Virus record (IMG/VR): IMGVR_UViG_3300037465_000558
DNA: 64,000 nt
Strand: one strand, 5' to 3'
Origin: a virus
Shown here: piece after piece, positions 530-33,941 of the stretch
Layout: every line of letters starts with the position of its first letter
Numbering within the stretch: the stretch's first letter is position 1
Notes under the pieces: model-generated
What the model saw: the letters and a program-made list of their open reading frames with translations, nothing else
Told to the model about the DNA's origin: nothing
Database searches by the model: none
Translations under genes and position numbers: made by a program

Positions 530-1708
530 TTACCGCGCTCCCTCCTCGAAGAACCGGACCGGGGCCGAGCCCGCGGCGCGCGCCTGAGCGACGCGCTCGG
601 CGATGACCTGAGCGTCGTTCGAGAAGTGACGCCCCTCGGGTTCCTCGGCGTTGAGGAGCCAGCCCTGGAAGCACGTGCGGAGCGTGATCGTGCCCGGGTC
701 GGCCGATGTGAAGCGGACGACGATGGCCGAGCGTCGCTTGAAGAGGTGCGTCCAGCCGCCGCGCGGGAAGCCGAGGCTCGCCGCCCGGATGACGCCGCCC
801 GAGGGGAAGCCCGCGATCGTGACCGTGGGGCAGGCCATGAAGTCGCGCCAGCGGAGCCCCTGGAGCCCGGCCACGCCCGCGAGGTCGACGAGCCCGCGCG
901 TCGTGTCGTCCTCCATGATCTGGGCATCGAGAAGAGGTTCCAAGCCCGTTGTGGACGTGCTGTCATCGAGGATCCAGCGCGCGAGGAAGTCGGCGAAGGA
1001 CGGGATCGGGAAGCGGAGGTCGATCTGGGCACCCGGGAGAAGCGTGACCTGGGGGCCCGTGAAGGCCGCCTCCATGTGCTGAGGGCCGATCCAGTAGGGC
1101 CAGGCATGCGCGAGCAGCTCCGCCTTGCGACGCTGGTCAGCACAAAGCTCGCGACCGCGGTCGATGAACTTCCGCCCCCAGGAGACGGCTGAAACGGTGT
1201 TGGGCGCGGCCACGAGGTTGCGGACGGTCACGCGCCAGTCCGTCTTGGCGAGCGAGTAAATGGGCGACGGCAGGAGCGCCGGCAACTGCGCCGTCCCGAA
1301 CATGAGGTTCGCCGAGATGAGGACGTTCGAGAGGTACTTGTCGAAGGGGCTCGCGACGTAGGGGCGGACCGCGACACGCTGGGCGTTGGTGCTCGTGAGC
1401 ATGAGCGCGCCCACCTGGTAGTCGCCGCGCGAGCCGGCCCCGCCGCCCACCTGGAGGTTGAACTCAGCCTCTTCGTTGGCCGCCATGGCGACCGGAAAGA
1501 GTCGGTCCTGGAACCGGAAGGGCGCGAATCGCCACTTCACGAGCCCCTTGTCAGCGTTGAGGCAGTAGCTCCCGTCGCCGCCGTCCTTCGGGTCGGACCA
1601 GAGGAGCGTGGGGACGTCGGGCGCCCACACCATGGAGGGCGCATCCCGAGAGCCGCCCGAGAGCCGGGCCGGGCTCGACGCGAGCGTGGGATCCGCCGCG
1701 GGGGCCAC
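530..1708 (-). CDS. Putative capsid protein (two-domain beta-sandwich, jelly-roll-like), paralog A
   Basis: Real part of ORF 530..1885. GTG at 1708 overlaps upstream TAG (alternative ATG 1633). Clear paralog of 1708..2757 (FGTAQLPALL, NTVSAV, ILDDSTSTTG[LV]EPLL). Fold is inferred. Confidence 0.6.
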   Translation of the reverse strand: MAPAADPTLASSPARLSGGSRDAPSMVWAPDVPTLLWSDPKDGGDGSYCLNADKGLVKWRFAPFRFQDRLFPVAMAANEEAEFNLQVGGGAGSRGDYQVGALMLTSTNAQRVAVRPYVASPFDKYLSNVLISANLMFGTAQLPALLPSPIYSLAKTDWRVTVRNLVAAPNTVSAVSWGRKFIDRGRELCADQRRKAELLAHAWPYWIGPQHMEAAFTGPQVTLLPGAQIDLRFPIPSFADFLARWILDDSTSTTGLEPLLDAQIMEDDTTRGLVDLAGVAGLQGLRWRDFMACPTVTIAGFPSGGVIRAASLGFPRGGWTHLFKRRSAIVVRFTSADPGTITLRTCFQGWLLNAEEPEGRHFSNDAQVIAERVAQARAAGSAPVRFFEEGAR

Positions 1709-2757
1709 TAGGACACCATCCTCGACTGGATGTCGCCGGCCTGGGACTTGAGCTGGGCCTGCACCGGCTCGGAGACGTAGATGAGCGTCCCGCCGAACGC
1801 GGTGCGAAGCGTGATCGTTCCGGCGTCGGTCGACGTGAAGACGACGCGGATGCGGGTCGAGCGCTCGAACAGGTGGCTCCAGCACCCGCCCGGCGACGGG
1901 AAGCTCGCGGCGCGGAAGAAGCCGCCCGAGGGCGACCCCGCCACGGCGAGCGTCGTTGGCGAGGCGAGGAAGTCGCGCCAGGACATGGCGACGTCGTTGA
2001 GCGGGCTCCCACGGTCGCCCTCGAAAATCTGCGCCGTGAGCAGCGGCTCAACGCCCGTGGTCGAGGTGCTGTCGTCGAGGATCCAGCGGCAATCGAAGGC
2101 CGCGTCGCCGGGCAGAGGGTATTCGAGTGTGACCGTGGCGCCGGGCGCGAGCACGACCTCGGGACCGCCCGGAACAATGACGCCCGCGCCCGTGACGCCC
2201 GTGGTCGGCCCCACCCAGTAGGGGTGCATGAAGCGCGAGAGGAGTTGCGCCTGGCGCACGTCGGGCTCGCGGTCGCGACCGCGGTCGACCTGACGGCGCC
2301 CGAAGACGACCGCCGAGACCGTGTTCCCGGCGCCCGAAAGCTCGCGGACGCGGAAGGTCCAGTCGATCGAGGCGTAGGAGTAGATCGTCTGGGCGAGCAG
2401 CGCCGGGAGCTGCGCCGTCCCGAAGAGGAGCGACGTCGGGATCGGGATGTTTGAGAGTTCCTTATCGAGGATCGGCACGTAGGGCTGGATGGCGAGCCGG
2501 CCCGTGGACGTGAGAAGGAAGGCGAGCGCCTCCACGTCGCCGCGGTTGCCGTCCTCGGGCGTGGTGCGGATGTTGAACTCGGTCACCTGGTTGGCGCCGA
2601 GGACGGCGGGGAAGGTGTTGTTGAGGCGCGCCGGCTGCCACGACCACTTCGAGGCCGCCTTCTGAGGGTTGATGACGTAGATCCCTCGCTCCTCGTCATA
2701 GAGGAGCGGCGGGATGTCGCCCGAGACAAGACCGACGACCGCGTCCTGGTAGATCAT
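1708..2757 (-). CDS. Putative capsid protein (two-domain beta-sandwich, jelly-roll-like), paralog B
   Basis: 349 aa, beta-strand pattern, collinear similarity with 530..1708, ATGA overlap with upstream gene. Confidence 0.6.
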   Translation of the reverse strand: MIYQDAVVGLVSGDIPPLLYDEERGIYVINPQKAASKWSWQPARLNNTFPAVLGANQVTEFNIRTTPEDGNRGDVEALAFLLTSTGRLAIQPYVPILDKELSNIPIPTSLLFGTAQLPALLAQTIYSYASIDWTFRVRELSGAGNTVSAVVFGRRQVDRGRDREPDVRQAQLLSRFMHPYWVGPTTGVTGAGVIVPGGPEVVLAPGATVTLEYPLPGDAAFDCRWILDDSTSTTGVEPLLTAQIFEGDRGSPLNDVAMSWRDFLASPTTLAVAGSPSGGFFRAASFPSPGGCWSHLFERSTRIRVVFTSTDAGTITLRTAFGGTLIYVSEPVQAQLKSQAGDIQSRMVS

Positions 2758-4762: not shown

Positions 4763-6094
4763 CTACTGCTCCTCGGCCCGGGGCTGGTGTGCCGTGCCGG
4801 GCTCTTGGGGCTTCTGGTGATTGGCCTCGGGCACGGCGCCTTCGGCTCGTGGTGAGAGTTTCTTGCCGCGCTGAACGATGCCGATCGCCCAGAGAGCGGC
4901 AGTTTGCCCGCGACGAGGCGACAGTGTCTCGCCGATCTCGCGGAAGGTCTTCCCTTGAGCACGCATAGCGTTTACTTGAGGCAAGAAAACCTGGAGCTTC
5001 CAGCCTCGCCCGTGATGAGGTATCGCGCCCTTGCGAGCGGCCCGTCGAAGTGCACCCTCGACAACGTGTCGCCCCTTGAAGCCGAGGCTCTTGGCGATCT
5101 CGTGACTCTTGAGTCCTTGATCGCGCAACTCAAGAATCCGCGGCAGAAGTCGCTCGACGCGACCAAGGCCATTGCTACGCCTTCCAGCGTCCGCATTGCC
5201 TTCGCGGCCACGCGGCTCGATCCCGTGGCGATAGCACGCGTCGGCAACGCCTTTGCGCTCGAACCCCATGGAGTCGGCGATCTCGGCGTGTGTCTCGCCA
5301 GCCTCACGCCGTTCCTGGATCTCGCTCATGCGATCTTCGATCGCGAAACGATGGACGGGGTCGCGCTCCATGGTCGAGATGGCGAGTGCGAGCGTGTCGC
5401 GCTTCCGCGGACTCTCGAAGTTCACGACCTCGGCGAATCGCCTGATGGCCCGGTGGTAGCTCAGTATGAGCCTGTACGACTCTCGTCGAGTCTCGGGACC
5501 ACGGCGCCGGTCGGTCTCCCATCGATGGTCGATTTCGAGATCGCGAAGAATGCCTGAGACCTGTTCGAGACCTTTATGGTTGATGCTCGTCAGAGAGATG
5601 CGCCGCATGAACGTCTCGGGAATGTATTGAACGTGCCCCTCAGCGTCCGCGAAGCCACTCACCCATCCGGCGCGCACATCGAGAGGCGCACTGAGTACTC
5701 TCTCGTCGATCCTCCAGCGGTAGACGCCGAAGATGCCGTGACCAAGAACGTCCTCGACGACGAGCCGCCACGAGCACCGCACGATGTAGTTCGTCTGCGT
5801 ACGCTTTCCCTTGCCTGGCGCGAACGCCTTGACGGTCGCGTGAGCACCATAGACCTCGTCGAATTTGCGAACGATCACTCCAGCGTCTTCGAGGTGAGTC
5901 CCGGCCGCGACTACGATCTGGCAGACGCGGCCGGGCTTGTAGGTCACCGAGCCGTCTCCCGCGATGTGGCCCAAAAGCCACGCCTTCTCGCGGGAGACGC
6001 TCGTGTCCTGGGGCTTGATGGCGCAGAGACCAGCCACGACCCTCTCCTGCGAGAGAATCATAGTAGAAGCTGCACACAAGAGCAACCAGAACAT
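4763..6094 (-). CDS. Double-motif LAGLIDADG homing endonuclease with C-terminal HTH-like extension
   Basis: Motifs WLLGHIAGDGSV and GWVSGFADAEGHV; C-terminal segments such as GETHAEIADSMG, GLKSHEIAKSLG, GKTFREIGETL. Lies directly 3' of the intron P9 region. Confidence 0.85.
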   Translation of the reverse strand: MFWLLLCAASTMILSQERVVAGLCAIKPQDTSVSREKAWLLGHIAGDGSVTYKPGRVCQIVVAAGTHLEDAGVIVRKFDEVYGAHATVKAFAPGKGKRTQTNYIVRCSWRLVVEDVLGHGIFGVYRWRIDERVLSAPLDVRAGWVSGFADAEGHVQYIPETFMRRISLTSINHKGLEQVSGILRDLEIDHRWETDRRRGPETRRESYRLILSYHRAIRRFAEVVNFESPRKRDTLALAISTMERDPVHRFAIEDRMSEIQERREAGETHAEIADSMGFERKGVADACYRHGIEPRGREGNADAGRRSNGLGRVERLLPRILELRDQGLKSHEIAKSLGFKGRHVVEGALRRAARKGAIPHHGRGWKLQVFLPQVNAMRAQGKTFREIGETLSPRRGQTAALWAIGIVQRGKKLSPRAEGAVPEANHQKPQEPGTAHQPRAEEQ

Positions 6095-6129: not shown

Positions 6130-6461
6130 AGAGACTGGCGCGCGCCATGCGTTTCGTTGCGTCTCGGTCGCTTCCACCGAAACTCTCCGACTTTCGCCGG
6201 AGACCAGACTATATCTTGATCCTCTCGGATCCCGCGTGCTTCGAGCCCGCTTGGGCCCTACTCCCCGAAGGGATAGTCGTTGAACCTTCCGCGGTTCTCG
6301 CGGCTCGGCTGCTGATTGCCCAATCCCAGGTTCTTTTTTGCGTTCACGTTTGGCCTTCCGGTCTGCGTTGTAGCGTCCTGGGCTCTAAGGGTGTTCCAGC
6401 ATTTCTCGCGGTTGCTTTCACTCGCCGTTTCCACGGCGAGGGGGCCTAGTTGAGACTCTTG
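6130..6461 (-). ncRNA. Group I intron ribozyme core (IA-like, with P7.1/P7.2)
   Basis: Minus strand P AAATGCTGGAA (6404-6394), Q AATCAGCAG (6317-6309), R TTCAACGACTA (6284-6274), S AAGATATAGTC (6217-6207). P2 8-bp stem with GGAA loop, P3 CCGCG/CGCGG, P8 GATCC-GAGA-GGATC, P9 CTCCGGC-GAAA-GTCGGAG. Confidence 0.93.
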
Positions 6462-7105
6462 ACCCCGTCGAGCGCCGAGAAGGCGTAGTACGGCACAAGC
6501 GCCGCGAGGGCGCCGCCCACCGCCGCCGGGACCGCCGCCGCGCCCGGCCAGCCCATCTCGACTTCGAGCTGCTCCAGCCCCACGATCTTATAGGGCTGTC
6601 CATCCGAGACGATGACCTTGCCGCCCCGCTCGGCGATGCAGGGGGCCATCATGTTGAACCCGGCGAAGCCGCCGACGAGGAACCGCGCGTCCGTGAAGGA
6701 CACGAGGTCGCGGAGGTTCGCCGTGATGAGCGGGCTCTGCGTGAACTTGGCCCGGATGAAGCCGTTCTCGCGGATCCGTTCGAGCTGCTCGAACACCCCC
6801 GCGCCGAGGATGCCCGAGAGGTCGGCGCCGAGCGTCCGCGGCCCCGCCCTCCACTCGAACCACAGGAGCTGGTAGCCCTGGGGCAGGCCGCCGCCGGGGC
6901 CGCCGAGGTTCGTGTCGCGCCCGTTGCGCTGCTTCGCCTCGGCGTTGGTGCCGGCGACCTGGAAGCCGGAGAAGTTCTGGAAGAGCGTGATGCTCGCGGG
7001 GAGGCCCTGGCCCGTCCCCGTGATGACCTCGGAGTCGTACGCGGACTCCTTACGGTCGGTGGCGTCGATCGAGGTGACCGGCGCGATCGTGGTCTGCTGC
7101 GGCAT
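6446..7105 (-). CDS. Putative major capsid protein (single jelly-roll-like); last codons interrupted by the intron
   Basis: 219 aa with AYDS..ITLFQ..RDTNLGG..GLPQGY pattern and C-terminal ALDGV, a pattern I associate with jelly-roll capsid proteins; strong AAGGAG RBS. Fold not verified. Confidence 0.6.
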   Translation of the reverse strand: MPQQTTIAPVTSIDATDRKESAYDSEVITGTGQGLPASITLFQNFSGFQVAGTNAEAKQRNGRDTNLGGPGGGLPQGYQLLWFEWRAGPRTLGADLSGILGAGVFEQLERIRENGFIRAKFTQSPLITANLRDLVSFTDARFLVGGFAGFNMMAPCIAERGGKVIVSDGQPYKIVGLEQLEVEMGWPGAAAVPAAVGGALAALVPYYAFSALDGVKSLN

Positions 7106-7284: not shown

Positions 7285-8292
7285 CTAGAACCGCTCCGAC
7301 TTCTGGAAGTAGCCGGCGCCCACGGGCGGCAGGGCGGGGCGGGCCGGCGCGTAGTAGTCCTGCGCGCCCTTCCGCCGGCCGACGGTGATGTAGTCGGCGA
7401 GGCCGAGCTGCTTGAGCGCCTGCATCGCGACCTGCGGCGACTGGCCCTGGGAGATGAGGTTGTCGTAGACGGCCTGAGCCTTGGCCGAGTACCAGTCCGC
7501 CGTGCCCTTCTTCGCGGGCATGGTCGGCAGCGCCGCGGCGAGAAGCGCCTCCTCGACCGGGAAGAGCTGCTCGCGGACCTTCGTGGAGAGCGCCGAGACG
7601 AGGAGGAGCGACGAGCCGATGAGCCCGCCCACGAAAATGCCGCGCCCGAGCCGCCCACGCGTGACGGCCGAGACGAGGCCCGAGGTCGCCGCCGTCGAGA
7701 CGAACGCCGTCGCGACGCCGCCGAACCCTCGCTGGAAGCCGTCGACCCCCGTCGCCTTGGCGAGGAGCTTCGGCACCGAGAGCGAGACCGAGAGGCCGCC
7801 GAGACCCTCCGCCGCGAGCGTCCACGTGCGGAGATCCCAGAGAGCCGAGAGCGGCTGCGTGATCGTGCCGAGGCCCGGGTTGTGGCGCCGGCCCCGGCGG
7901 CGGTAGACCACCACGCCCGGGTTCCGGCGACGCCGACGGATGCGGAAGGGGTTCGAGCGCCGCGCCCGACGCCGCGAACGGTACGGGTTCTTCCGCCGCT
8001 TGCTGGACTTCTTGCCCGAATTCTTCCGCTTCTTCCCGCCGCCCCCACCCGGGAACCCGGCGAGGATGACCTGCGTCGTGGCCGGCGAGGACTTGCGGCG
8101 CTTGCCCGACTTCGTCCGCGAGCGCGCGGTCTTCGGGAAGCGGGCGATGAGGGCCCCGCCCTTCTCCGTGAACCGCCCGGCCGAGCCGCGGCGGATCTGG
8201 AAGGGGAGGTTGCGGCGGCGCGGGCGCGCGTTCGACCGCCTGACGATGCTGTACGCCCGGCGACGCTTGGCGGGCGAGTACGAAACCGGCAT
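7285..8292 (-). CDS. Arg-rich, membrane-associated putative core protein with R-x-N-P repeats
   Basis: ATG 8292 with GAAAGGAG RBS; very basic N-half (RRKNP, RRSNP, RRRNP, RRHNP), hydrophobic segments in C-half. Confidence 0.75.
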   Translation of the reverse strand: MPVSYSPAKRRRAYSIVRRSNARPRRRNLPFQIRRGSAGRFTEKGGALIARFPKTARSRTKSGKRRKSSPATTQVILAGFPGGGGGKKRKNSGKKSSKRRKNPYRSRRRARRSNPFRIRRRRRNPGVVVYRRRGRRHNPGLGTITQPLSALWDLRTWTLAAEGLGGLSVSLSVPKLLAKATGVDGFQRGFGGVATAFVSTAATSGLVSAVTRGRLGRGIFVGGLIGSSLLLVSALSTKVREQLFPVEEALLAAALPTMPAKKGTADWYSAKAQAVYDNLISQGQSPQVAMQALKQLGLADYITVGRRKGAQDYYAPARPALPPVGAGYFQKSERF

Positions 8293-8427
8293 GGACGACT
8301 CCTTTCGAGACGGGCCCGCGGCGACGTGCCGTCGCGCCGAAGGGCGTGACACGGGTTGGGGCCGTCCCGACGTTCGGGACAGCCGCCCGAGTTCCGACTT
8401 GGCTCCGTTGACGAGGAAGAACATGGG

Positions 8428-10008
8428 TCAGCCTCGCAACCAGTCCCGGCCCCTCATGCCGCCCATGAGGTGGAAGCCGGTTCTTTGGCTCTGGACGAGG
8501 TAAGTGGGACGCCTCTTGGAGGTCTCGTGTCCCCACGGCGAGCCCTGCTTGTTCGAGCCCTCCGGGACATCGTCGTAGGTGACCTCGGGGCTCCGGCCCC
8601 AGAGGAAGCCCGAGTCGACCGCGTTGCCGCGGCCGTCGTCGAGGATGACGACCTCATCCGAGATCGCCACTCCAGGTCCGTGGGCGCGCCGGAAGGCTTC
8701 CACATCGGCCCGGATCTGCGGGTAGCGACGGATCGCCTCGGCGAGCGGCATGGTGCCGAGGAAGATGTCCGACGGGAACTTGAGCGCCGGGTTTCGCCGC
8801 CGTGCTGGCGCCGCGCTCCTAGGGAGCAGCGCCGCGGCCGCGGCGACGCCGCCAGCGGCGAGCGCCCAGCCAGGGACGTTGCGCGCGCGCCGCGGGTTCT
8901 TCGGCATCCCGTGCCGCTGCCACACGTCGAACATGGCCCGCCAGGCAGGCGTTCCGCGCCGCGGTGGCGTCATGCCGCGCGAGCGCGCCCACGCCTCGGC
9001 GGCGTCGGCGAGGGTCGGCGCGTTGCGACCGCGCGGCGGGTTCCCAAGGAGCGGGAGCGCCGAGCCAACGACGGTCACGTAGGGGTTGCGCTTCGCTGGC
9101 GCGAAACCCTGAGCGATGAACTCCGGCCGATCCTGCGCATCGGTGGAGATGAGCAGCGGCGTCCCCTTCCCGTGCCAGGCTTCCGCGGCGAGCATGGGGT
9201 TCCGTGTGCGTCGGGAGTTCTCGCGCGCGAGAGACCCAGGCTCGGCGTGCTTCCGCCGGGCATCGAGCTTCCCGGCCTTGGTAACCCAGAACGCGTGTTG
9301 CGTGAGCCACTCCGCGTCCGAGACGAGCGGCACAGGCTCCACACCACGAGCGCGGAGAGCTTCGCGCTGATGCGCGATCCGATGCTCATTCTCGAACGTC
9401 CAACGGTGGACGTAGGCGCGGAGAACCTCTTGCTGGAGATGAAAAGGAAGCCGATCGCCGCGGACGAGTTTAGGCCAGCGCTCCTTCTCGATGCGCTTCC
9501 TCATGGCCGCGAGACGCTGCGCCGCCACAACGTCGCCCTGCGCCGCAAGCCGCTCCAGCCGCCGCATCTCCTCGTCTTGGGGATTGCTTCTCCGCCCGAT
9601 CCCGAGCCGCTGCGCGATCGGCCGCCCGAAGGCGTCGTACGCGAGGCCACCCACCACGCCACCGAGGGCGGCAGGGAGGAGAGAGATCGGGTTGCAGCGC
9701 CCCGGGTTCGTCTTGAGCACGGGCCACGGCGGACCGGAGACCGCGATCGGGAGTGCGGCCTCCACCGCATCCAGGTCCGCCGAGGTGAGAGGCTTGCCGG
9801 TCGCAACGTAGACAAGCGGGTACGTCTCGAAGGAGCCGGCCGCGGGCGCGTGGAAGGGATGGAGTGTGTCCACATCCCAGCCCGGCAGACGATCGCGCAC
9901 GACAGCCCGCGCGACGTTGACGTGGACCTGACCGTACAGGCTCACGATCGGGCCCATGGCGCCCTTGGGCCACATGATCTGGACTGAGCTGCGACGGCGC
10001 GTAGCCAT
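8428..10008 (-). CDS. Modular virion-block protein segmented by basic-N-P motifs
   Basis: 526 aa; RRSNPQ, RTRNPM, KRNPY, KNPRR, RRRNPA separate dissimilar segments; ATGA overlap. Confidence 0.75.
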   Translation of the reverse strand: MATRRRSSVQIMWPKGAMGPIVSLYGQVHVNVARAVVRDRLPGWDVDTLHPFHAPAAGSFETYPLVYVATGKPLTSADLDAVEAALPIAVSGPPWPVLKTNPGRCNPISLLPAALGGVVGGLAYDAFGRPIAQRLGIGRRSNPQDEEMRRLERLAAQGDVVAAQRLAAMRKRIEKERWPKLVRGDRLPFHLQQEVLRAYVHRWTFENEHRIAHQREALRARGVEPVPLVSDAEWLTQHAFWVTKAGKLDARRKHAEPGSLARENSRRTRNPMLAAEAWHGKGTPLLISTDAQDRPEFIAQGFAPAKRNPYVTVVGSALPLLGNPPRGRNAPTLADAAEAWARSRGMTPPRRGTPAWRAMFDVWQRHGMPKNPRRARNVPGWALAAGGVAAAAALLPRSAAPARRRNPALKFPSDIFLGTMPLAEAIRRYPQIRADVEAFRRAHGPGVAISDEVVILDDGRGNAVDSGFLWGRSPEVTYDDVPEGSNKQGSPWGHETSKRRPTYLVQSQRTGFHLMGGMRGRDWLRG

Positions 10009-11249
10009 CAGCGCTTGCGCCCCTTCTTGAAGATGTCCCCGCTATGGAACAAACAGCGGCAGCCCGGCTTGTGGCTCGCGAAGCCGCCGCCCTTGCGACC
10101 GCTCTTCTTGGGCTTGTTCGGTCGTCGCGCCGCCGTGTGCCGCACGAGCTGCGACGCCTCGGCGATGCCATCCGCGATGCCGCCGTTGTAGTTCGCGTAC
10201 AACTTCTGCTTGGCGGCGAGGCGCTTGTACTCCGGCGTGCCGATGCGCTCGTACTCCTCGGCAACACCCTTGTCGGCGTAGGCGAGGTCCATGAACTGCT
10301 TCCGCCGCCGCTCCAGAAGGCGAAGCTCACGCGGCGTGAGCGGGTTCGCCCTCTGACTGCGGAACCACACGATCTGTCCCGATGCGTTCACCTGGATGCC
10401 GCTCACCCCGAACGCGCGCTCGACCTCGTTCGCCGCCGCGCGGTGCGTCTGCCCAGCACGGCGGAGGCTCTCGTAGTAGCGCTGGAGGTCCATGCGCGTG
10501 GGCCCAGTGACGGCGTTGCGCCGCCGCGGGTTCTTCTTCTTGCCGAAGAGGCGCGCCTTGCACGCGGCGCAGAGCACCTCGTCCTTGGGGAGGCCCGTGC
10601 GTCCGCACGCATCGCACGTGGGCGCCCATTGGATGGGGATGGTGATCGGCCACCCCGGCCGCCCCGGCGCGTTTCGATACGACCCGCCCTTGGAACCGCC
10701 GAAAGCGGCGAGCCACTCGATGACCTTCTTCTCGGTTCCCGAGAAGAGCACCTGACGCTTCTGCACCGGAGCGCTCGCCGGCCACGTCACGAGCCACCGC
10801 TGGTTCGGCACCGACCAGAGAATCGAGAGCCCCGTGACCTGGGGACCACGCCACCGCGCCACGGCGTTGCGACGCCGCGCGCTCGCCCGCCCCGCCACGA
10901 ACCCGGCGCCGGCACCGAGCGCGCCCGCAGCGAGCGGCGTGAGGCCGCCAACGGGGATGTAGGCGTTCGACCGGCGCGAGACCGGGTTCGCCGCCTTCCG
11001 CGGCGCCGTCACCCGTTTGACGATGTCGCCGCGCCGGACCGCCTCCTCGACGAGTCGCTTCGGGAACGGCACGCCCTCGACCTTCACAAGCGGCGGGTGC
11101 GGGCAGACGGAGCGGAGGGTCGCGTAGAAGACCGAGCGACCCCTCTTCGGTCCGTACCGGCGCACGATCCCGACGAACATCTTGCGGAAGATCGCCTCGG
11201 CGATCCTGGGGAGGCGACCCGTCGCATAGGGCAGGTACGGCTTGCTCAT
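10008..11249 (-). CDS. Basic modular virion-block protein with N-P/N-A motifs
   Basis: ATG 11249 with GGAGG RBS; KAANPV, RRSNAY, RRRNAV, KKNPRRRNAV, RANPL; includes a CxxC...CxxC segment. Confidence 0.75.
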   Translation of the reverse strand: MSKPYLPYATGRLPRIAEAIFRKMFVGIVRRYGPKRGRSVFYATLRSVCPHPPLVKVEGVPFPKRLVEEAVRRGDIVKRVTAPRKAANPVSRRSNAYIPVGGLTPLAAGALGAGAGFVAGRASARRRNAVARWRGPQVTGLSILWSVPNQRWLVTWPASAPVQKRQVLFSGTEKKVIEWLAAFGGSKGGSYRNAPGRPGWPITIPIQWAPTCDACGRTGLPKDEVLCAACKARLFGKKKNPRRRNAVTGPTRMDLQRYYESLRRAGQTHRAAANEVERAFGVSGIQVNASGQIVWFRSQRANPLTPRELRLLERRRKQFMDLAYADKGVAEEYERIGTPEYKRLAAKQKLYANYNGGIADGIAEASQLVRHTAARRPNKPKKSGRKGGGFASHKPGCRCLFHSGDIFKKGRKR

Positions 11250-12361
11250 CGCCACGTCCTCCACCGACGCCGCGGCCGGTTCTGCTTGCGCTCGGGCTCG
11301 CCACCACCACCGCGAGACGCGGCGTAGACGAGCCCTCCCACTACGGCCACGGTCGCGAGGCCGATCCCGACGACCGCGCCCGTGCTGAGTCCCTTCTTCT
11401 CGCGAGGCGGCGCCACGACGGGCGGCGGCGCGCCAAAGAGAGCGCCGTAGACGTCCTGGGTTGCCTGGAGCGCCTTCGGGACGGCGGGACCAGGCCCGAA
11501 GAGCGTCTGGACGACGCCGGTCGCCGTGTCGACAACGGGCTTGGAGGGCGCAGCGCTGGGAATCGCACCGTTCGGCGCTGCCGAAGGCTTCGCCGTGCCC
11601 TTGATCTTCTGGCCGAGCGTGGGCGCGTCGGCCCACGGCCACCACCGGAGGACGGCGCTGCCCGCGACCTCGTCGTCCGAGAACCAGCCTTCCTCGACCT
11701 CTTGGAGGAGGACGTTGAAGCCGGCGCCGACCTGATCCTTCCGCTCGACCTTCCAGACGCCCGGCGGAAGACCGACGACGGAGTAGGAGGGTGCCTCGCC
11801 TACAGAGATCGTGCGCTGCCGATAGGGGTCTTCGGCTTCACGAGAAGCCCGCTGCTTGGCGAGGATCTCTTCGACGGCTGCCGTATCGCGAGCGATGGCA
11901 ACCTCCTCGGCCTCGCTTGCTGCGCGCTGCCTGGCGAGGATCTCCTCCACAGCCGCGGTGTCGCGCTCGATCGCCAACTGATCGGAAAGTTCATCGGCAA
12001 TCGACTTGAGTCGAGAGACCTCGTGGTAGTCGCCACGGGTCTGAGCAAGCGAAATCGCGTTCAAGACATCCGCAAGCTCTGCTTGAACGCTCGCCACGTC
12101 GCCCACACCCTGTCGCCCCGCGCATCCGCACCCGAGCCCACGCGAGGCGAGGAACTCCACCGCGAGCGGGCCGCCGCGCGCCGCCCAGTACCTCTCCACG
12201 CCCGAAAGCCCGCGCTTGGGTTCGAGCTGCTCCGGCGAGAACGTCTCGAACGCCTCGGTTCCGCGCGGCGTCGCCACGGGCTGAGCCCGGGAGAGTCCCT
12301 TGGGCGCCGCGCCGTTCTTCTGCGTGATCGAGCGGACGAGGCCGCCGTTGTAGCCCTTCAC
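11246..12361 (-). CDS. Membrane-anchored virion-block protein (coiled coil, C-terminal TM, basic tail)
   Basis: GTG 12361 with GGAGG RBS; GLG/GVG motifs; TM GAVVGIGLATVAVVGGLVYAA followed by Arg-rich tail. Confidence 0.75.
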   Translation of the reverse strand: MKGYNGGLVRSITQKNGAAPKGLSRAQPVATPRGTEAFETFSPEQLEPKRGLSGVERYWAARGGPLAVEFLASRGLGCGCAGRQGVGDVASVQAELADVLNAISLAQTRGDYHEVSRLKSIADELSDQLAIERDTAAVEEILARQRAASEAEEVAIARDTAAVEEILAKQRASREAEDPYRQRTISVGEAPSYSVVGLPPGVWKVERKDQVGAGFNVLLQEVEEGWFSDDEVAGSAVLRWWPWADAPTLGQKIKGTAKPSAAPNGAIPSAAPSKPVVDTATGVVQTLFGPGPAVPKALQATQDVYGALFGAPPPVVAPPREKKGLSTGAVVGIGLATVAVVGGLVYAASRGGGGEPERKQNRPRRRWRTWR

Positions 12362-12798
12362 GCGACGCCTCCCAGCCGCCGCGCGGCTTCCAGGATGTCC
12401 TCGACGCGGTCCCGAACACCCACGAGCGGCTCGTCGAGCGCCATGGGCCAGGGGCCGGAATCGACGATCGCACGGACCGTCGCGAGGTCGGAGCGGAGCT
12501 TGTGAAGCTCGTCGATCGCGGCTGCCTCGGGATGCCAAGGGGCGATGAGGCCGCCTCCGGGGTGATGGCCCACGCGCCGGTAGACCGCAACGTCTGCGTT
12601 CTGGAACGCGTGCTCCGCGCGCTGGAGCAGCATGCGCGCCGTCCGCTCGGCGCCCGCCGGATCGGTCGGCGAGAGGCTCTCGATGTCCTCGGGCCGATCG
12701 CGCACGGGACTCGCGACGTTGCCGCCCACGGCCGAGCCGTAGACGATGCCGAGGCCGAGATCGCGGATCGGGTCGCGGGGGATCTCGCGGTAAGCCAT
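12358..12798 (-). CDS. Virion-block protein (MAYR start, GLG motif)
   Basis: 146 aa, coupled to neighbours by overlap/abutment. Confidence 0.7.
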   Translation of the reverse strand: MAYREIPRDPIRDLGLGIVYGSAVGGNVASPVRDRPEDIESLSPTDPAGAERTARMLLQRAEHAFQNADVAVYRRVGHHPGGGLIAPWHPEAAAIDELHKLRSDLATVRAIVDSGPWPMALDEPLVGVRDRVEDILEAARRLGGVA

Positions 12799-13548
12799 CT
12801 ACCACCCCCTCCAGACATTCCTGAGCCGCTCGTCGGTCTTGGCCGGCGTGATCGCGGCACCCGCACGACGAGAGGCGCCTCGGATCGCGGGCCCGAAGAG
12901 GTAGGCGGTGAGCGTGAGCCCAGCGAGCGCGCCCACACCGTAGATCGGCCACTTCCAGCGGTCGAACCAGTCGCCCGCGGCCTTGGCGGCGCCCTGGACC
13001 TGCCTCTTGCGCTCGTCCGCGACCTCGGCGAGCGACTCCAGATACCAGTCGGACCAGGAGGTTCGCGGGTCGGGCTGGGCCGCCACGCGCGCCGCCGGAG
13101 TCCGAGGCGCGAGCCTCCCGAGACGAACCTCCTCGGCGGCATCCTTCCCGAGCGCATCGACGAGTTCCTGGAGCCGCGGGATGTTGGCCCAGTCCTGGGT
13201 CGCGTACGCTTGGGCCAGGGCCGTCTGCGCATCCGCGAGCGCGACGAGAGTCTCTTCGCTCTGTCCGAGACCCTGCCGCGCCGCCAACTCGGCGCGCATG
13301 GCGCAGACGCGCGCGTCGCCCATGCCGACGTGCGACGGCACCCAGTCAGGCACGCCCGGGATCGGCCTCCCCGGAGAGTCGGTGTTCGCCGCGGCGATGC
13401 CGAAGATGCCATCGAGGTCGCGACGCGGGCCGCCCGAAGGAACGAAGGGCGAACCCGGCACGAGGCCCGTGGGCAGCTCGATCGTGCCGTCGGCTCCTCG
13501 CCAGACCGAAGTCCCGAACGTCGGAAGCGGCGCCACGCGATAGGCCAT
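12799..13548 (-). CDS. Membrane-anchored virion-block protein (MAYR start)
   Basis: 249 aa; GMG/GLG motifs; TM WPIYGVGALAGLTLTAYLFGPAI near C-terminus. Confidence 0.75.
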   Translation of the reverse strand: MAYRVAPLPTFGTSVWRGADGTIELPTGLVPGSPFVPSGGPRRDLDGIFGIAAANTDSPGRPIPGVPDWVPSHVGMGDARVCAMRAELAARQGLGQSEETLVALADAQTALAQAYATQDWANIPRLQELVDALGKDAAEEVRLGRLAPRTPAARVAAQPDPRTSWSDWYLESLAEVADERKRQVQGAAKAAGDWFDRWKWPIYGVGALAGLTLTAYLFGPAIRGASRRAGAAITPAKTDERLRNVWRGW

Positions 13549-13551
13549 GCG

Positions 13552-14013
13552 CTACCACCTCCCTCCGGGCAAGGCGCAGAACGTGCGCGCATCGAAGCGC
13601 CGCGGATTCCGACGCCGATAGGAACGGAGCGCTCGCGCGACCACGAACGCGATCCCGGCCGCGGTCGCCACACCCACGCCGACGGCGACGACACGCGCGA
13701 GCCCCGAGTAGTCCGGGACGTCGCGCCAGGGATCGAGGTCGACCTTGCCGCCGATCGTCCCCACCGTGACTCGCGGACGCAGGACGTGCGCCGTGAGCCA
13801 CTGACCCCACCCGCTGCCCTCAGCCGAAGGCTCGGCGTCGCCCGTGCGGTACTCGATCTCGACCTCGGGGAACGCCGTCGAGACGGCCACGGAGTTCACG
13901 ACGCCACCGAGAGCGCCCACGCTCGGGATCTGCCCGAGACCCGAACCTCCCGCGAGCCCGAGGGCGGCGCGGTTCGCGGCGCGGATCCTGTCCATCTCGG
14001 CGCGCGTGCGCAC
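13552..14013 (-). CDS. Membrane-anchored virion-block protein
   Basis: 153 aa; GSGLGQ, C-terminal TM then RRRNPRR. Confidence 0.7.
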   Translation of the reverse strand: MRTRAEMDRIRAANRAALGLAGGSGLGQIPSVGALGGVVNSVAVSTAFPEVEIEYRTGDAEPSAEGSGWGQWLTAHVLRPRVTVGTIGGKVDLDPWRDVPDYSGLARVVAVGVGVATAAGIAFVVARALRSYRRRNPRRFDARTFCALPGGRW

Positions 14014-15134
14014 TAGAGCACCCCCGCCAGAAGCCGACGCCTACGCCGCGGGTTCGAGCGCCGAGCCGCGACGATCTTCGAGGCGCCATAGGCGAGCCCG
14101 GCGACGACCGCCGCGCCACCCACCCACGGGATCGCCTTCTTCGCGACATCGACCCACTGAGCCGTGCGCGCTGCCGCGCTCGCCTCCTCGGAGCGCAGGG
14201 TCGCGAGCGCAACCTCGCGTTGCGCCTCGATCGCCTCGCGCTGGATCTCTTGCTGCTCGCGCGCACCCCTGGCGCCAAAGACGACGCCGGCCGCGGGGAC
14301 GGCCTGGGCGACCTGGCCGACGGCGCCCGAGATGGCGCCAATGACGGCCGACCAGGGATCCTGCCCGAGACCCGAGACGCCCCGCTTGCGCTTGGGACCG
14401 AAGACGCCACCACGCGACCACATGGTCCAAGGCGCGAAGACGTTCGAGAGAAGCTCCACGGTCGGGTCGACCTCGGGGAGCTTCTCCGGCTTGGGCGCGG
14501 GAGGCGCGGCCGTGCGCTCGGCGTCGCGGGACGCGAGGAACTCGTCGATGAGCCGACGAAGGTCCGACTTCGTGCCCGGGTTCGACCGGAGCGAGCGGTA
14601 GTACGTCTCGGCGGAGGAGGGCGCGTAGGCGCCGAGGCCGCGAAGCCCTGGCAGCGACGACACAGGACCGGGCTCCGCACCCGAGCCAGGAAGCCCGTAC
14701 CGGAACGTCTGGTAGCCGGCCGAGGAGATAGCCGCGGGAAGTTGGAGCGGCGCCAGAGCGCCGTAAGCCATCTCGATCCCAGGCACAGGCACGACGGGCG
14801 CGAAGAGCGGAGCCGCGAAGGTCGCCACGGTCAAAGCCGCTGCGATCCGCTCACCCTTCTGCTCCTTCTCGCGTGCCTTCCTCACGGCGCGAGCCTGCGC
14901 CTCGCGCGCTCCTTGTTCGAGCGCGAGCCGACGCGTGGCATCGCCGATCGGGTCCGTCACGCGTTGTCGCCAGCCGACCGAGCCGCGGAACTCGTCGACC
15001 ATGGCCCGGAAGCGAGGCGAGCCGGAGGCGTAGGCGGATGAGAGCCACTCCGGCTCGTCGCCGTAGGAGTAGCCCTCCCCGAGGCCCGCGCCCCGGATCG
15101 ACTCTGCCACGCCGCTCCCGGCCCGGTAGCCCAC
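14013..15134 (-). CDS. Membrane-anchored virion-block protein (MGYR start)
   Basis: 373 aa; three GLG motifs; C-terminal TM IPWVGGAAVVAGLAYGA then RRSNPRRRRR. Confidence 0.75.
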   Translation of the reverse strand: MGYRAGSGVAESIRGAGLGEGYSYGDEPEWLSSAYASGSPRFRAMVDEFRGSVGWRQRVTDPIGDATRRLALEQGAREAQARAVRKAREKEQKGERIAAALTVATFAAPLFAPVVPVPGIEMAYGALAPLQLPAAISSAGYQTFRYGLPGSGAEPGPVSSLPGLRGLGAYAPSSAETYYRSLRSNPGTKSDLRRLIDEFLASRDAERTAAPPAPKPEKLPEVDPTVELLSNVFAPWTMWSRGGVFGPKRKRGVSGLGQDPWSAVIGAISGAVGQVAQAVPAAGVVFGARGAREQQEIQREAIEAQREVALATLRSEEASAAARTAQWVDVAKKAIPWVGGAAVVAGLAYGASKIVAARRSNPRRRRRLLAGVL

Positions 15135-16442
15135 CTAAAAACGCTCTGCGCCCCAGATCCGCGTGTCGCGTCGCGGGATCCCGAACGGCTGCGGCGCCGC
15201 GACGGGCTCGGGCGGCGGGGCCGGCGCCATGCGCGCCTGGAGCGCCTGCGCGAGGGCTGCGATCACGTCCGTCCCGGGCTTCGAGAGCGCTTCTATGAGC
15301 GCGAGCGCCTCGGGTGAGGGCCCGGCCGGCGCGCCCACCGAAGACGGCGGCACGAACCGCTCCAGGAGCAAGGGGAGCGTCTGGAGGAGCGTCGCCTGTT
15401 GGGCGGCAGCGGCGGCGCGCTCCGCCGCGGCGGCCTCGCGCTCCTCGCGCATCTGAGCGAGGCGAAGCTCCATCTCCTCGCGGCGAGCCTGAGCTTCGAG
15501 CTGCGCCTGGGCGCGGATCCGCTCGGCCTCGATCTGAGCCTGGCGCTCGGCGCGAGCCCGCTCCTCGGAACGCTCGGCGAAGAGGAGGCGCTCCTGCTCC
15601 TGGCGGGCGCGTTCGGCGCGCTCCTCGGCGGCGAGACGAGCGGCCTCGGTCCTGGCCTCGGCGGCGGCCTGCACGGCGGCCTGCTCGCGACGCTGCGCCT
15701 CCTCGATCGCGCGCTGTTGTCCCGTGACGGCTGCGACGGCCGAGCGAAGCTCGCCCTCGCGACCGATCGCACGCGCCGCGGCGACCACGCTCGGCTCCTG
15801 GAGAGCGGCGAGCGCGCCAGCGAAGTTCCCCGACCCGGCGAGGGACTGCGCGACGAGAATCGCCTGCGAGACGGAGTCGGCGGCGGCCTGTGCCTCGCCC
15901 GCACGGCGCTCCGCCTCCTGTCTGGCGGCGGCGATCTGCCGCTGGCGCTCCGCCTCCTGCTCGGCGAGAGCAGCCTGGCGCTGGGCGGCGCCCGCGGCAT
16001 CGCGAACCTCGGCGAGGAGCTGCGCCGCACGCTTGACCTCGGTGCTCGTGCTGCTCGCCTTGGCGACGATCCCCTGGATGACCGGCGCTTGCGAGCCGAG
16101 CCACATGGCCGAGTAGAACCCGGCGGGCGGCACCATCTGCTCGATCGTCGTCTGCGAGGACCGCACGAACTCCGCGGCTTGGTCGAGCGTGCGCGCGAGC
16201 GGCGTCGCGTCGGCCACGGCCTGCGAGATCCCGGAGGACTGGATCTCGGCGAAAACACCACGCCCGACCTGGACGCCCTTCTCGATGTCCGAGAGGAGCG
16301 CCTTCGCCTTCGCCTGATCGGCCTCCAGCTCCGACTGACCGTAGAAGCCGAGGCCGCGGTGAAGGGGCGCCTGGAAGTCGCCCGCGCGAAGCGCCCGGCT
16401 CGTCCGGTGATCCGCGAGCCCGTTGCCGATCCGGTAGCCCAT
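15135..16442 (-). CDS. Long coiled-coil virion-block protein (MGYR start; pilot/tape-measure-like)
   Basis: ATG 16442 with GGAGG RBS; extended A/E/R/Q heptad-rich central region, Pro-rich C-terminus. Confidence 0.75.
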   Translation of the reverse strand: MGYRIGNGLADHRTSRALRAGDFQAPLHRGLGFYGQSELEADQAKAKALLSDIEKGVQVGRGVFAEIQSSGISQAVADATPLARTLDQAAEFVRSSQTTIEQMVPPAGFYSAMWLGSQAPVIQGIVAKASSTSTEVKRAAQLLAEVRDAAGAAQRQAALAEQEAERQRQIAAARQEAERRAGEAQAAADSVSQAILVAQSLAGSGNFAGALAALQEPSVVAAARAIGREGELRSAVAAVTGQQRAIEEAQRREQAAVQAAAEARTEAARLAAEERAERARQEQERLLFAERSEERARAERQAQIEAERIRAQAQLEAQARREEMELRLAQMREEREAAAAERAAAAAQQATLLQTLPLLLERFVPPSSVGAPAGPSPEALALIEALSKPGTDVIAALAQALQARMAPAPPPEPVAAPQPFGIPRRDTRIWGAERF

Positions 16443-16547
16443 TTTCCGAACCTCCAGGAAAACGAAAACGCCCGACACGGGAAAAGAGTTCGCTGACAGC
16501 GCGAATCTCGCTTCCAGGTCGGGCGTCCGGGAAAGCGCCGAGGCTAC

Positions 16548-19057: not shown

Positions 19058-19747
19058 TCAGGGGAAAGCAACCACCAAGTCAAGCGACTCGCCGACCCAG
19101 TCTTCGCGCGGCGGCTCCCACCCGAGAGGGAAGCTCGTCACCGCATCTTGGCCGAGCCACGTCGGCCCGCCGGGACCTGGTATGCCAGCCAGAGCATAGA
19201 CGTGAGAGAAATCCTCGCGGTTAGGATCGAGTCGCACCGCTCGAATCATGCAGCCATGACCAACGCCAAGGTTGAGCGCGCAAACAAGCGCCACCATGTC
19301 GTCGCAATCGCCCTGTGGATCAACGAAGAGCAAGTAGCCGGGCGACGAGATGCGATCGACCTCGTCCACACCGATGGGATCGTGCCGATAGTCGGTCATC
19401 TCGCGCACGTAGCCAAGGATCGCGGCGGCTTCTCCCTGGTAGTCGCGACCACGAACACCTCGGACGATCGACCGCGCCTCCTCCACGAAGAAGGGATCCG
19501 TCACCGCCTCGCGCGCGAGCGCCGCGATGATCTCCAGCTCGGCCTTGGTCCCCTTGACACCCGGCGGAATCGGCACGCGCCGCCATGTCGATCGGTCGGG
19601 CGCGGGCGCGCTCACGGGCGACGGGATCCCGTCGATCTTCACTCGCGGCGGCGTCCAGAGAAGCGAGCCAGGAGGCGCGCCGTCGGCGGGGGGAATGGGG
19701 GAAAAACCGAGCGGCGCGCCCCCATGGTTCCTGGACCGATAGGCCAT
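19058..19747 (-). CDS. Transglutaminase-like cysteine protease
   Basis: GDCDD (catalytic Cys), FSHVY (His), WLGQD (Asp) triad pattern; preceded by YRHDP; starts MAYR. Confidence 0.8.
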   Translation of the reverse strand: MAYRSRNHGGAPLGFSPIPPADGAPPGSLLWTPPRVKIDGIPSPVSAPAPDRSTWRRVPIPPGVKGTKAELEIIAALAREAVTDPFFVEEARSIVRGVRGRDYQGEAAAILGYVREMTDYRHDPIGVDEVDRISSPGYLLFVDPQGDCDDMVALVCALNLGVGHGCMIRAVRLDPNREDFSHVYALAGIPGPGGPTWLGQDAVTSFPLGWEPPREDWVGESLDLVVAFP

Positions 19748-24771: not shown

Positions 24772-25156
24772 CCTTCTTCTCCCCCGCGAACGTCTTCGCG
24801 TTCTTCATGGCGCCGAGCTTGTCCTCGGCCTCGCGGATCTCCTGCGTGAGCGCCGCGAGCCGCTCCTCCGCTCGCTTCACCGCGGCGAAGGGCTCCAACC
24901 CGTCGTACGCCTGCTTGAGCGCCGCCTCGACTGCCACGGCCTGCTCGCACTTCATCTCGGTGTGGGCGCCCGTGAGACGGATCGTGCCCCACTCCTTCCA
25001 GTTCCGCATGTCGTAGAAGTCACCACGGCGATAGGCGTCGACTTGCACGCGCCAGACCTCCAAGAAGATGTCCTGCCCCGACACGAACGCCTCGATGCGG
25101 ATGCGGCCCACGCCATCTTCCACTTGCCCGTACTCGTGAGTCCCGATCGACCTCAT
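24755..25156 (-). CDS. Hypothetical protein
   Basis: 133 aa, ATGA overlap. Confidence 0.7.
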   Translation of the reverse strand: MRSIGTHEYGQVEDGVGRIRIEAFVSGQDIFLEVWRVQVDAYRRGDFYDMRNWKEWGTIRLTGAHTEMKCEQAVAVEAALKQAYDGLEPFAAVKRAEERLAALTQEIREAEDKLGAMKNAKTFAGEKKDEPPF

Positions 25157-26301
25157 AGCTCACCCCGCATAGCACCCGCGATGGGCGCGAGCGGCCCCAT
25201 GAAAGCGCTCGTGAGCCGCCGCCCGAGTTCGGGAGTCTTCCAGCCGGCCTTGAAGTCATCCGAGCGACACACAGAACGCAGGCACGCCGCGGCGACGTCG
25301 GCCGACTTCTCGGCGACCTTGGCCGCGACCTCGACCGACCGCACGAGGCGCTCGGGCTTGTTGGGCTTGTCAAGGAGGGCCACCGCCATGACGCCCGCGA
25401 GGCAGGCGTACGTCTGGTCCGAGCGCCGCATGGGAACCTCAGCGGCGCCCGCGAGAACGGCCTCCGGGTCCGGGAGATCGAGGTCACGGAGGTACTTCCA
25501 GGCTTCGTTGCCGACACCTTCACCCACGGCGCCGTGCAGGAGCTTGAGCGTCACGCCGTCGCCGGCCCCGAGTGAGCGCGAGCCAGCGTAGGCGCGCGCG
25601 GCAAGTTCCATGGAACGCGGGCTCGGCCAGGCGCGACCGCGCTCGGTGTCGGTCTCGGGCACCTTCAGGAGGTGCTGCGGGAAGCGCCGCGCGAAGGCAG
25701 CAAAGCTCGTGCGCGCCGCCGCCCACTCGCGAGCCCAGGTCTCCTCGGCGAGCTGCACGGTCGCCTTCTCGGGCCCGCGACCATCACTCGAGAGCCACTC
25801 CGCCCATGCCTCGCCCGAGGGCGGCTCATAGTCGAGATGGATGAGCCGGTTCGCGAGTGGCGGCGTGAGGGTCCAGCCGCCCGCCGCGAGGTCTTCCGGG
25901 TTGGCGGCAGCGATCACGCGCACATGGGGTGGCAGCGGGAAGTCGCCCACGACACCTTCGGCGACGACGCGCAGCGCCGCCGACTGGAGTGCGGGAGGCG
26001 AGACATTCAGCTCATCCAGAAACGCGACGCCACCCGACCCGTGCTCAGCGAGCCGCTTCGCCCACGCAGGCGCCGCGAGCTTCACGCTCCCGTCAGGCTG
26101 GATGAGCGGCAGGCCCGCGACGTCGGACGGCTCGCGGATCGAGAGGATGACCGTCTCGACATGGAAGCCGCGGTCGCGCCCGACCTGCTCCACGCGCGAC
26201 GTCTTCCCGCAACCGGGAGGAGAGTACAGGATCGCCGGCAGTCCCGTGCGGCCGCGAGGCCCCGGCGTGAGCATGAGGACGTCGAGAATGTCGGCAGCCA
26301 T
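25153..26301 (-). CDS. MoxR-like AAA+ ATPase
   Basis: Walker A SPPGCGKT, REPSDVAGLP, Walker B AFLDELN, VIAAANP, PLANRLIH. Confidence 0.85.
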   Translation of the reverse strand: MAADILDVLMLTPGPRGRTGLPAILYSPPGCGKTSRVEQVGRDRGFHVETVILSIREPSDVAGLPLIQPDGSVKLAAPAWAKRLAEHGSGGVAFLDELNVSPPALQSAALRVVAEGVVGDFPLPPHVRVIAAANPEDLAAGGWTLTPPLANRLIHLDYEPPSGEAWAEWLSSDGRGPEKATVQLAEETWAREWAAARTSFAAFARRFPQHLLKVPETDTERGRAWPSPRSMELAARAYAGSRSLGAGDGVTLKLLHGAVGEGVGNEAWKYLRDLDLPDPEAVLAGAAEVPMRRSDQTYACLAGVMAVALLDKPNKPERLVRSVEVAAKVAEKSADVAAACLRSVCRSDDFKAGWKTPELGRRLTSAFMGPLAPIAGAMRGEL

Positions 26302-26315
26302 GCGCGCGCTCTCTC

Positions 26316-26846
26316 CTACTCTTGGACGATCTCGAAGCGCACTCCCTGTTGGTCCGTGCTGCCCGCGGAGAGCGTCTCCACGCGCCAGACCCACTCGCCC
26401 GTGGCGGGTCGCATGTAGGCGGCGCGCGTCAGCTCGCGCCACAAACACCTGAAAGACGCCGTGCCGTTGCCGCCTGAGACCCGGATCGTCCCACCGACAG
26501 GCGTTTCGGTCCCGCTCTCCAAGATGATGCGCGCGCCCGGCGCGCGAATGAGAGAGACGCCCACATCCTCGCCGAACTGGATCGAGATGAGCCTGCCTAT
26601 ACTTGGCTCAGGGAGGTTAACCCGACCCGGAATGTCCGCCACGGGCACCAAGGCCGCGGGGTGCGCATAGAACACGAGACCGCAGCGACCGCAGACGGCC
26701 AGATTGCCGCCATGACTGAGCCCAATGAGAGCCACCCTCTCGTCACGCGCATGTCTCTCGCGCAAGCAGACGAGCAGCGCCGCCAGCGCCTCGTCGTAGC
26801 GAGCTTCGCGTTCGAGACGGCGGCGTTGTTCGTCGGGTGTGGTCAC
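26316..26846 (-). CDS. Hypothetical protein
   Basis: 3' part of ORF 26316..27014; GTG start at 26846 is a guess. Confidence 0.5.
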   Translation of the reverse strand: MTTPDEQRRRLEREARYDEALAALLVCLRERHARDERVALIGLSHGGNLAVCGRCGLVFYAHPAALVPVADIPGRVNLPEPSIGRLISIQFGEDVGVSLIRAPGARIILESGTETPVGGTIRVSGGNGTASFRCLWRELTRAAYMRPATGEWVWRVETLSAGSTDQQGVRFEIVQE

Positions 26847-27099
26847 GGTCGCGTCCAAAAGGGACGCCTGCGGAGGTAGGAGCCCCGCAAGCGCCGGACG
26901 AGCGTTGCACTCGCCGTTCCCTTGTCTTGGTGAATCGCGTCCTACACGCGATGACAGGTGAATGGTAGCGCATGGTCCGTGGCATCGCAAACACGAAGTG
27001 TCTCGCGTCGGCATGCGCTCACGCTACCCGTACACTCCATCTTGGAAGCATCAAAGAAGTACGGGTAAAGCGAACCAAGACCAACGGCCTCACGGGGAC

Positions 27100-27143
27100 T
27101 TCCTCTCTGTAAGAGAGGAACCCCGGGTGTAACCTGCCGGGGT
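27100..27143. repeat. Twin abutting palindromes
   Basis: TTCCTCTCT-GTA-AGAGAGGAA (27100-27120) and ACCCCGG-N10-CCGGGGT (27120-27143). Confidence 0.75.
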
Positions 27144-33865: not shown

Positions 33866-33941
33866 AACTTGATCTCGGAATGTATGGTGTTGGCTCTGTT
33901 TACCTTAAGAACGCTTGAAAGATCAAAACGATACCGAACGC

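Follow-up and report, generated by a model that had tools for sequence, protein, structure and literature searches.

The DNA examined here, IMG/VR record IMGVR_UViG_3300037465_000558, is a 64-kb stretch (the window) of a 75.7-kb virus-like contig. On its minus strand lie, in this order, genes C (10008-11249; 413 amino acids, aa), B (8428-10008; 526 aa), and A (7285-8292; 335 aa), followed by an open reading frame (ORF) at 6446-7105 that is the major capsid protein candidate. Proteins B and C are hypervariable chains of cassettes, each 30 to 300 aa long, joined at a (basic)-x-Asn-Pro motif and provided with constant terminal anchors: the M1 domain in B and a His/Cys tail in most C proteins. At these Asn-Pro (NP) seams the arrays gain and lose cassettes, change their order, and exchange them between B and C. 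Tentatively, and with rather less than even confidence, we propose that the locus represents a widespread group of large single-jelly-roll bacterial viruses with plug-in cargo, in which NP-flanked domains would be packaged within a precursor and released by an Asn-Pro-specific maturation protease of the transglutaminase fold.

A first-pass annotation of the window had pointed to basic-x-N-P motifs in A, B, and C, and every motif it listed is present in its place. Protein A contains RRKNP at aa 102, RRSNP at aa 114, RRRNP at aa 124, and RRHNP at aa 138. In B the motifs are RRSNP (aa 142), RTRNP (aa 270), KRNP (aa 308), KNP (aa 371), and RRRNP (aa 406), with extra NP dipeptides at aa 101, 106, and 323, while C has RRSNA (aa 95), RRRNA (aa 128), KKNP (aa 240), RRRNA (aa 245), and RANP (aa 302), with an extra NP at aa 88. 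Single copies occur on the same strand in the short basic tail past the C-terminal membrane helix of ORF 13552-14013 (RRRNP, 13603-13608) and in the basic tail of ORF 14013-15134 (RRSNP, 14049-14054). The motif is enriched over its composition background: 15 of the 36 Asn residues in A, B, and C are followed by Pro, compared with 2.8 expected (P = 3e-8), and the pattern [RK][RK]xN[PA] occurs 11 times, compared with a mean of 0.22 and a maximum of 4 in 20,000 shuffles. The remaining genes of the window are near background (18 NP, 14.6 expected). Asn-Pro proved to be the invariant core; the basic residues that the annotation had made part of the motif are preferred at positions -3 to -1 of NP (36 to 53%, compared with 17%) but not obligatory. 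Its description of all three proteins as strings of unrelated modules fits B and C and fails for A, which consists of an Arg/Lys-rich arm and one conserved hydrophobic domain.

Nine relative loci (L001 to L009) were gathered via homologs of A and the capsid protein. The gene order C, B, A, capsid is kept in all of them, with B ranging in length from 319 to about 1,000 aa and C from 346 to 1,468 aa. Across these 10 genomes, NP accounts for 217 of the 517 Asn residues in A, B, and C (35 expected) and for 103 of 1,160 in other genes (75 expected). A profile of the M1 domain of B retrieved 199 representatives at E ≤ 1e-3, of which 141, none used earlier, served as an independent set. M1 is C-terminal in 139 of these 141 B-family proteins, and in the extensions upstream of it 589 of 1,283 Asn residues precede Pro, compared with 92 expected (46% versus 7%). 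Nearly all long extensions (98 of 105) are NP rich, with NPs spaced about 8 to 140 aa apart, and tandem NPs separated by 5 to 13 aa are common in the family. Scans of IMG/VR and GTDB with the capsid protein and M1 as queries returned no loci, and a literature search whose coverage excluded most subscription journals turned up no account of either the motif or this group of viruses.

The suggestion that the array could gain and lose cassettes was borne out by comparing module order with relatives, reordering at the motif included, and several of the segments between motifs are the independent mini-domains that had been supposed. Splitting at the tag yields 208 segments, 91 of which fall into 22 shared clusters. 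Among relatives, 46% of local-alignment ends lie within 6 aa of an NP, a figure that is 38% with the motif masked and 16% (maximum, 27%) at random. Window B and the B protein of L001 have seven cassette types in common, arranged differently: M14 opens the window protein but comes fourth in L001, where it follows the DEEMRR cassette that it precedes in the window, and a hydrophobic micro-cassette has swapped positions with M9. Exchange also crosses gene boundaries, as M9, M17, and M20 are each found in B of one virus but in C of a different one, and aa 302 to 374 of window C match the B-type protein P0075 (E = 7e-22). The 571 cassettes of the wider family group into 428 clusters.

Within the window, B has eight NP seams and begins with M14 (aa 1 to 100; 9709-10008), which is 57% identical to aa 369 to 467 of L001 B, where it is internal. 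M5 (aa 106 to 141; 9586-9693), a Gly-rich hydrophobic helix common to L002, L003, L005, L007, and seven library cassettes, is followed by aa 142 to 269 (9202-9585), in which a helical leader of the DEEMRRLER type is fused to an aromatic HRWTFEN domain that matches P0078 at E = 5e-20. Then come M9 (aa 270 to 307; 9088-9201), present in gene B of L001 and gene C of L003; the hydrophobic micro-cassette between two NPs (9037-9087; family consensus NP-LLAIVG-NP); and M10 (aa 323 to 370; 8899-9042), a Trp-rich helical cassette common to L001, L008, P0119, and P0057. The chain ends in M1 (8428-8793), a domain of about 120 aa without known family or fold match, whose model (predicted local distance difference test score, pLDDT, 72) gave no convincing fold match, with a best Z of 3.4 that does not in itself imply a novel fold. 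Protein C combines NP and NA seams with a Cys-cluster Zn finger, an LTxxE cassette, and the His/Cys C-terminal tail. All of these features lie on the minus strand. Many cassettes open with a helix directly after NP; the DEEMRRLER leader begins no more than 14 aa past an NP or the N terminus in 26 of 29 cases, and LTxxE is a second recurrent leader after NP. Micro-cassettes number 85 in 72 of the 141 family members, at variable distances from M1. Most cassettes are net basic (141 of 156), and 22 of 208 have Cys clusters. Searches of Pfam and PHROGs found no family for A, B, or C, giving only a sub-threshold zinc ribbon in C.

Asn-Pro behaves as a strict tag at the level of protein, because motif codons are ordinary and the dipeptides DP, SP, and TP are not clearly enriched. 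The Asn, Pro, and Arg codons at the motif match background usage, which argues that selection acts on the protein. With the 217 motif sites holding 177 different 12-mers in addition, the tag is not a DNA repeat, and we rejected that origin. NP is five-fold enriched in B and C over local shuffles, while DP, SP, and TP stay inside the shuffle range and RRx[^N]P is not above it. In A, RRxN[^P] is two-fold enriched (30, compared with 14.7 expected). Asn is the least replaceable residue of the motif, and neither Asp nor Gln ever takes its place. This strictness is unlike a generic turn or helix cap, which is disfavored. ATG codons with a ribosome-binding site (RBS) occur near 0.6% of seams, compared with 2% at random, so the idea that seams are fossil or fused gene boundaries fails for these genomes. 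A 2A stop-go motif was rejected by inspection, as no NPGP consensus follows the tag. NPTH in a conserved folded domain of the FlhB/YscU type is also absent: the residues after NP vary, and Pfam gave no match.

Taken by itself, the tag is most probably a site of cutting. The reading we favor, at slightly less than even confidence, is that B and C are cargo of the polyvalent type, packaged in the virion and cut at N-P by a transglutaminase-like enzyme. Precursors would be drawn into the particle together with DNA through their positive charge and constant anchors; a transglutaminase-like Cys-His-Asp enzyme would then cut exposed N-P bonds, and the small cassettes set free could enter the next host and act there as early effectors. 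Cutting at N-P may likewise separate the Arg-rich arm of A from the membrane domain, giving DNA-condensing peptides, and may trim the basic tails of membrane proteins. Packaging of B and C is plausible given their gene position, their positive charge, and the polyvalent-type cargo of relatives. In favor of the reading as a whole stand the confinement of NP enrichment to A, B, and C, the strictness of the dipeptide, the clustering of homology ends at NP, the lack of NP within recognized domains, the triad and position of the enzyme as kept among relatives, and the peptidase release proposed for polyvalent proteins.

Protein A, which is directly upstream of the capsid gene and has an RBS (AAGGAG) ahead of its ATG at 8292, is probably a core/membrane protein. 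It has five homologs and keeps its position in the nine relatives. The arm (aa 1 to 137; 7882-8292, minus strand) is 36% Arg plus Lys with a single acidic residue and contains four NPs and further RRxN; in relatives the arm is 130 to 220 aa long, 35 to 48% Arg plus Lys, and nearly devoid of acidic residues. RRxNP at the arm end is invariant in six aligned A homologs and is followed by the conserved hydrophobic domain. From its sequence, A looks like a membrane-tethered DNA-condensing protein, with the arm as the putative condensing segment. The ends of A and of the protein encoded at 15135-16478 share an E-x-F terminus that is conserved in relatives.

Recognized cargo in the M1 family includes RelA/SpoT (P0149), ArdC-N with an HExxH peptidase (P0166), GNAT (P0129), and helix-turn-helix domains, and GP88 is found in P0133, in P0151, and in L009, where it adjoins the capsid gene. 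No NP falls within the 1,154 aa of recognized domains, where 15 would be expected at the array rate. A B-family protein at 10001-13372 of a further locus, L016, carries ArdC-N, an HExxH peptidase, and a ParB-like cassette, the last recognized by eye; it lies at the end of an element that is integrated in a 583-kb cellular contig and adjoins a type I restriction-modification cluster. By eye, an NP-bounded cassette of P0076 (aa ~260 to 410) has the look of a GIY-YIG nuclease, and it had no Pfam match at E 0.001.

The candidate maturation protease is the transglutaminase-like cysteine enzyme at 19058-19747 (minus strand; C148, H182, and D201). Its PF01841 match is weak. The Cys-His-Asp triad is invariant in four aligned homologs, and its gene precedes the structural genes in L002, L004, L005, and L009, so that triad and position are kept in five genomes. 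The sole PDB sequence match is the weak one to 4fgo (E = 0.18), an entry we take to be a LapG-type cysteine protease. Weakly in favor of the pairing, a predicted complex of the enzyme with aa 296 to 331 of B scored 0.35, compared with 0.04 for the best control, a weak pass at 58% contact agreement and a partner pLDDT of 47. As calibration, 58 of the 80 solved complexes and 2 of the 110 mismatches attained the mark for a pass; at scores of 0.60 or lower, 7 of the 80 solved complexes and both passing mismatches did so.

Several points weigh against this reading. Cleavage at N-P and packaging in virions have both been reached by indirect argument. We know of no transglutaminase-fold protease that cuts Asn-Pro, and the enzyme could instead act on the host envelope or form cross-links. 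A pass like that of the predicted complex errs more often than it holds, and it moved our estimate of cleavage by the enzyme very little. What precedes NP is either basic or hydrophobic-Gly, two dissimilar contexts that sit oddly with a single protease pocket. NPs also occur in loops of M1 in L004, L007, L008, and L009, and inside M1 there are 62 NPs compared with 29 expected. Among the A proteins, those of L007 and L008 mostly have R, S, T, or F after the RRxN of their seams, and in L008 the stretch of A ahead of the hydrophobic domain lacks NP altogether. As for the cargo, the ArdC-N, MPTase, RelA/SpoT, and GNAT repertoire of polyvalent proteins appears in P0166, P0149, and P0129 of the M1 family, none of it was detected in window B or C, and the window's own cassettes matched no effector family in Pfam or PHROGs. 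The member with ArdC belongs to an integrated element, any capsid gene of which is outside the region examined, so that the link between effectors and the jelly roll comes directly only from GP88 (L009) and DUF5661 (L004).

One possibility, less probable but worth serious weight, is that NP is a docking or packaging tag that is never cut: basic-NP and LLAIVG-NP turns would bind an inner capsid pocket, membrane proteins, or DNA, each cassette would carry its own packaging signal, and the chain would be delivered whole. A strict dipeptide suits a binding pocket equally well, and the NPs tolerated in M1 loops, the common tandem NPs, and the single RRxNP tags placed after membrane anchors all sit comfortably with docking, as does the conserved eight-residue hydrophobic micro-cassette, which is easier to understand as a strand for docking than as a peptide set free. 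Docking leaves unexplained, however, why NP falls exactly at domain edges and never within cargo enzymes, and why every cassette has its own tag when one or two would be enough.

It is improbable, in our estimation, that NP serves solely as a structural joint. On this view it would be a turn or helix cap within basic linkers that bind DNA, each module would bring its own copy along, in-frame fusions would be tolerated, and B and C would be intact nucleoid proteins. The helices directly after NP in many cassettes agree with such a role, as do the prevalence of net basic cassettes, the Cys clusters, and the mild over-representation of NP in other genes (103, compared with 73), but good caps such as DP, SP, and TP do not rise above shuffles. 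The tag is moreover common to hundreds of unrelated cassettes and to the tails of membrane proteins, which points to a common reader acting in trans. Marginally harder to credit is self-cleavage of the seams by cyclization of the Asn side chain, helped by the particle interior or by pH and needing no protease. FlhB, YscU, and HrcU do cut themselves autocatalytically at the N-P of NPTH by Asn cyclization (PMC3040844), and the near irreplaceability of Asn, the exclusion of Asp and Gln, and the excess of RRxN[^P] in A speak for such chemistry; known N-P autocleavage nevertheless requires a strained folded context, while the seams here lie in unrelated flexible basic linkers. Last, a shadow of DNA repeats or fused gene boundaries is very improbable and largely refuted by the codon, 12-mer, and start-codon counts above, even though cassette exchange must take place at the DNA level and the L007 array has an extra gene boundary.

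The carrier is likely to be a jelly-roll virus that is large, has no tail, and probably contains an inner membrane. The capsid protein candidate (6446-7105, minus strand) has 36 homologs and a model (pLDDT 70) with a single beta-sandwich. Its best structural matches are jelly-roll capsid proteins at Z 6.6 to 6.8, weak values below 8, among them SPV1 (Z 6.7; root mean square deviation 4.2 over 134 aligned residues) and HHIV-2 (Z 6.6); Foldseek gave the model no match at E ≤ 0.001, and leads to P2/P3 capsid families in Atlas scored <0.9. No terminase was found on the window or on a 98.8-kb relative, contigs that may be incomplete, nor did a Walker A scan and a DUF87 search reveal there a packaging ATPase of the FtsK/HerA type, as expected of halopaniviruses; Terminase_6N had no match in the genome bin holding that relative. 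The window ORFs examined likewise showed no sign of a DNA polymerase, a terminase, or a packaging ATPase.

Many genes upstream of the array encode proteins that terminate in a membrane helix. At 11246-16478 on the minus strand lies a series of Ala/Gly-rich proteins, several of which combine a membrane helix at the C terminus with a short basic tail; in L001, L002, L005, and L006 the protein just ahead of C retains a basic-x-N tail. Beginning within the last codons of the capsid gene is a group I intron (6185-6471, minus strand; RF00028, 50.3 bits, E = 1e-10), followed by a LAGLIDADG ORF at 4763-6094 (minus strand); in L001, L003, L007, L008, and L009, genes for related endonucleases either come after the capsid gene or split it. 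Two adjacent paralogs without family match (530-1708 and 1708-2757, minus strand; ~350 to 390 aa), whose order is kept in most relatives, are probably minor capsid or vertex proteins. Elsewhere in the window, 25153-41968 encodes a MoxR-like AAA ATPase, a DUF3854 protein, a PIF1 helicase, an AAA_24 ATPase, and a B12-type ribonucleotide reductase, and a tyrosine integrase (PF00589) at 56613-58124 on the plus strand suggests a temperate life style. A weak hint of the host comes from one relative located within the Deltaproteobacteria genome bin GCA_020848905.1.

SPV1 (Portogloboviridae), an archaeal virus with a 20-kb genome, has a nucleoprotein core and an inner membrane (PMC8459092). The present group resembles it and other membrane-containing single-jelly-roll viruses in its jelly-roll capsid candidate, Arg-rich protein, and many membrane-anchored proteins. 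It differs in genome size (75 to 115 kb) and GC content (~68 to 71%) and shows no sequence similarity to SPV1, for which no cassette proteins are described. FlhB, YscU, and HrcU share the Asn-Pro bond, whose scission is chemically established there (PMC3040844); theirs is a single site in a folded domain, whereas the seams here have neither the TH context nor homology.

Polyvalent proteins are known from conjugative elements and from phages, the latter of the terminase-portal class and without an internal membrane, and release of their domains by peptidases has been proposed (Iyer et al. 2017, PMC5512222). That study reports no linker motif shared among them (PMC5512222). Like them, the B family is variable and multidomain, with unrelated domains in variable combinations, a late-gene context, and cargo in some members that includes ArdC-N with HExxH, RelA/SpoT, and GNAT. 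Unlike them, it has a probable single-jelly-roll carrier, smaller cassettes, a fixed Asn-Pro at each seam, and a separate transglutaminase-fold gene as candidate peptidase. Because the carrier appears to be neither a terminase-portal phage nor a conjugative element with a type IV secretion system, membership is partial: the architecture agrees, the carrier type does not, and delivery is presumed. The locus would carry polyvalent effector proteins beyond tailed phages into tailless viruses of the jelly-roll type, and the NP tag supplies the sequence rule for where domains start and end that is missing in known polyvalent cases. Applied to the wider family, the rule splits proteins into hundreds of candidate early-infection effectors, the 428 cassette clusters, most of them unannotated. 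What the present locus contributes is a direct demonstration that cassettes are permuted and exchanged between B and C, together with the tests of strictness and codon use, the micro-cassette, and a protease candidate kept in synteny.

In phage T4, the internal proteins IPI to IPIII bear a capsid-targeting sequence that is removed by gp21. By analogy, both systems appear to be hypervariable loci of small, in our case presumably injected, proteins united by one short tag; the T4 proteins are encoded by separate genes in a tailed phage and tagged at the N terminus, while here the tags are internal to one polypeptide. The core precursors pVII and pX/Mu of adenovirus are cut by adenain, and pp220 and pp62 of African swine fever virus (ASFV) are cut at GG-X. 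The resemblance to the present group may lie in a jelly-roll virus, basic core precursors, a short recurrent motif at boundaries, and a virus-encoded cysteine enzyme, here a candidate for the protease role. The motif and the protease fold are different, however, and the products in adenovirus and ASFV are conserved structural proteins without shuffling, released by a cleavage that has been demonstrated where ours is proposed. If the enzyme does cut N-P, its specificity would be new for a protease, and the system would be a counterpart among prokaryotic viruses of core maturation in adenovirus and ASFV and the first polyprotein processing system shown in a prokaryotic jelly-roll virus, a mechanism that can be tested by co-expression with no need for virus culture.

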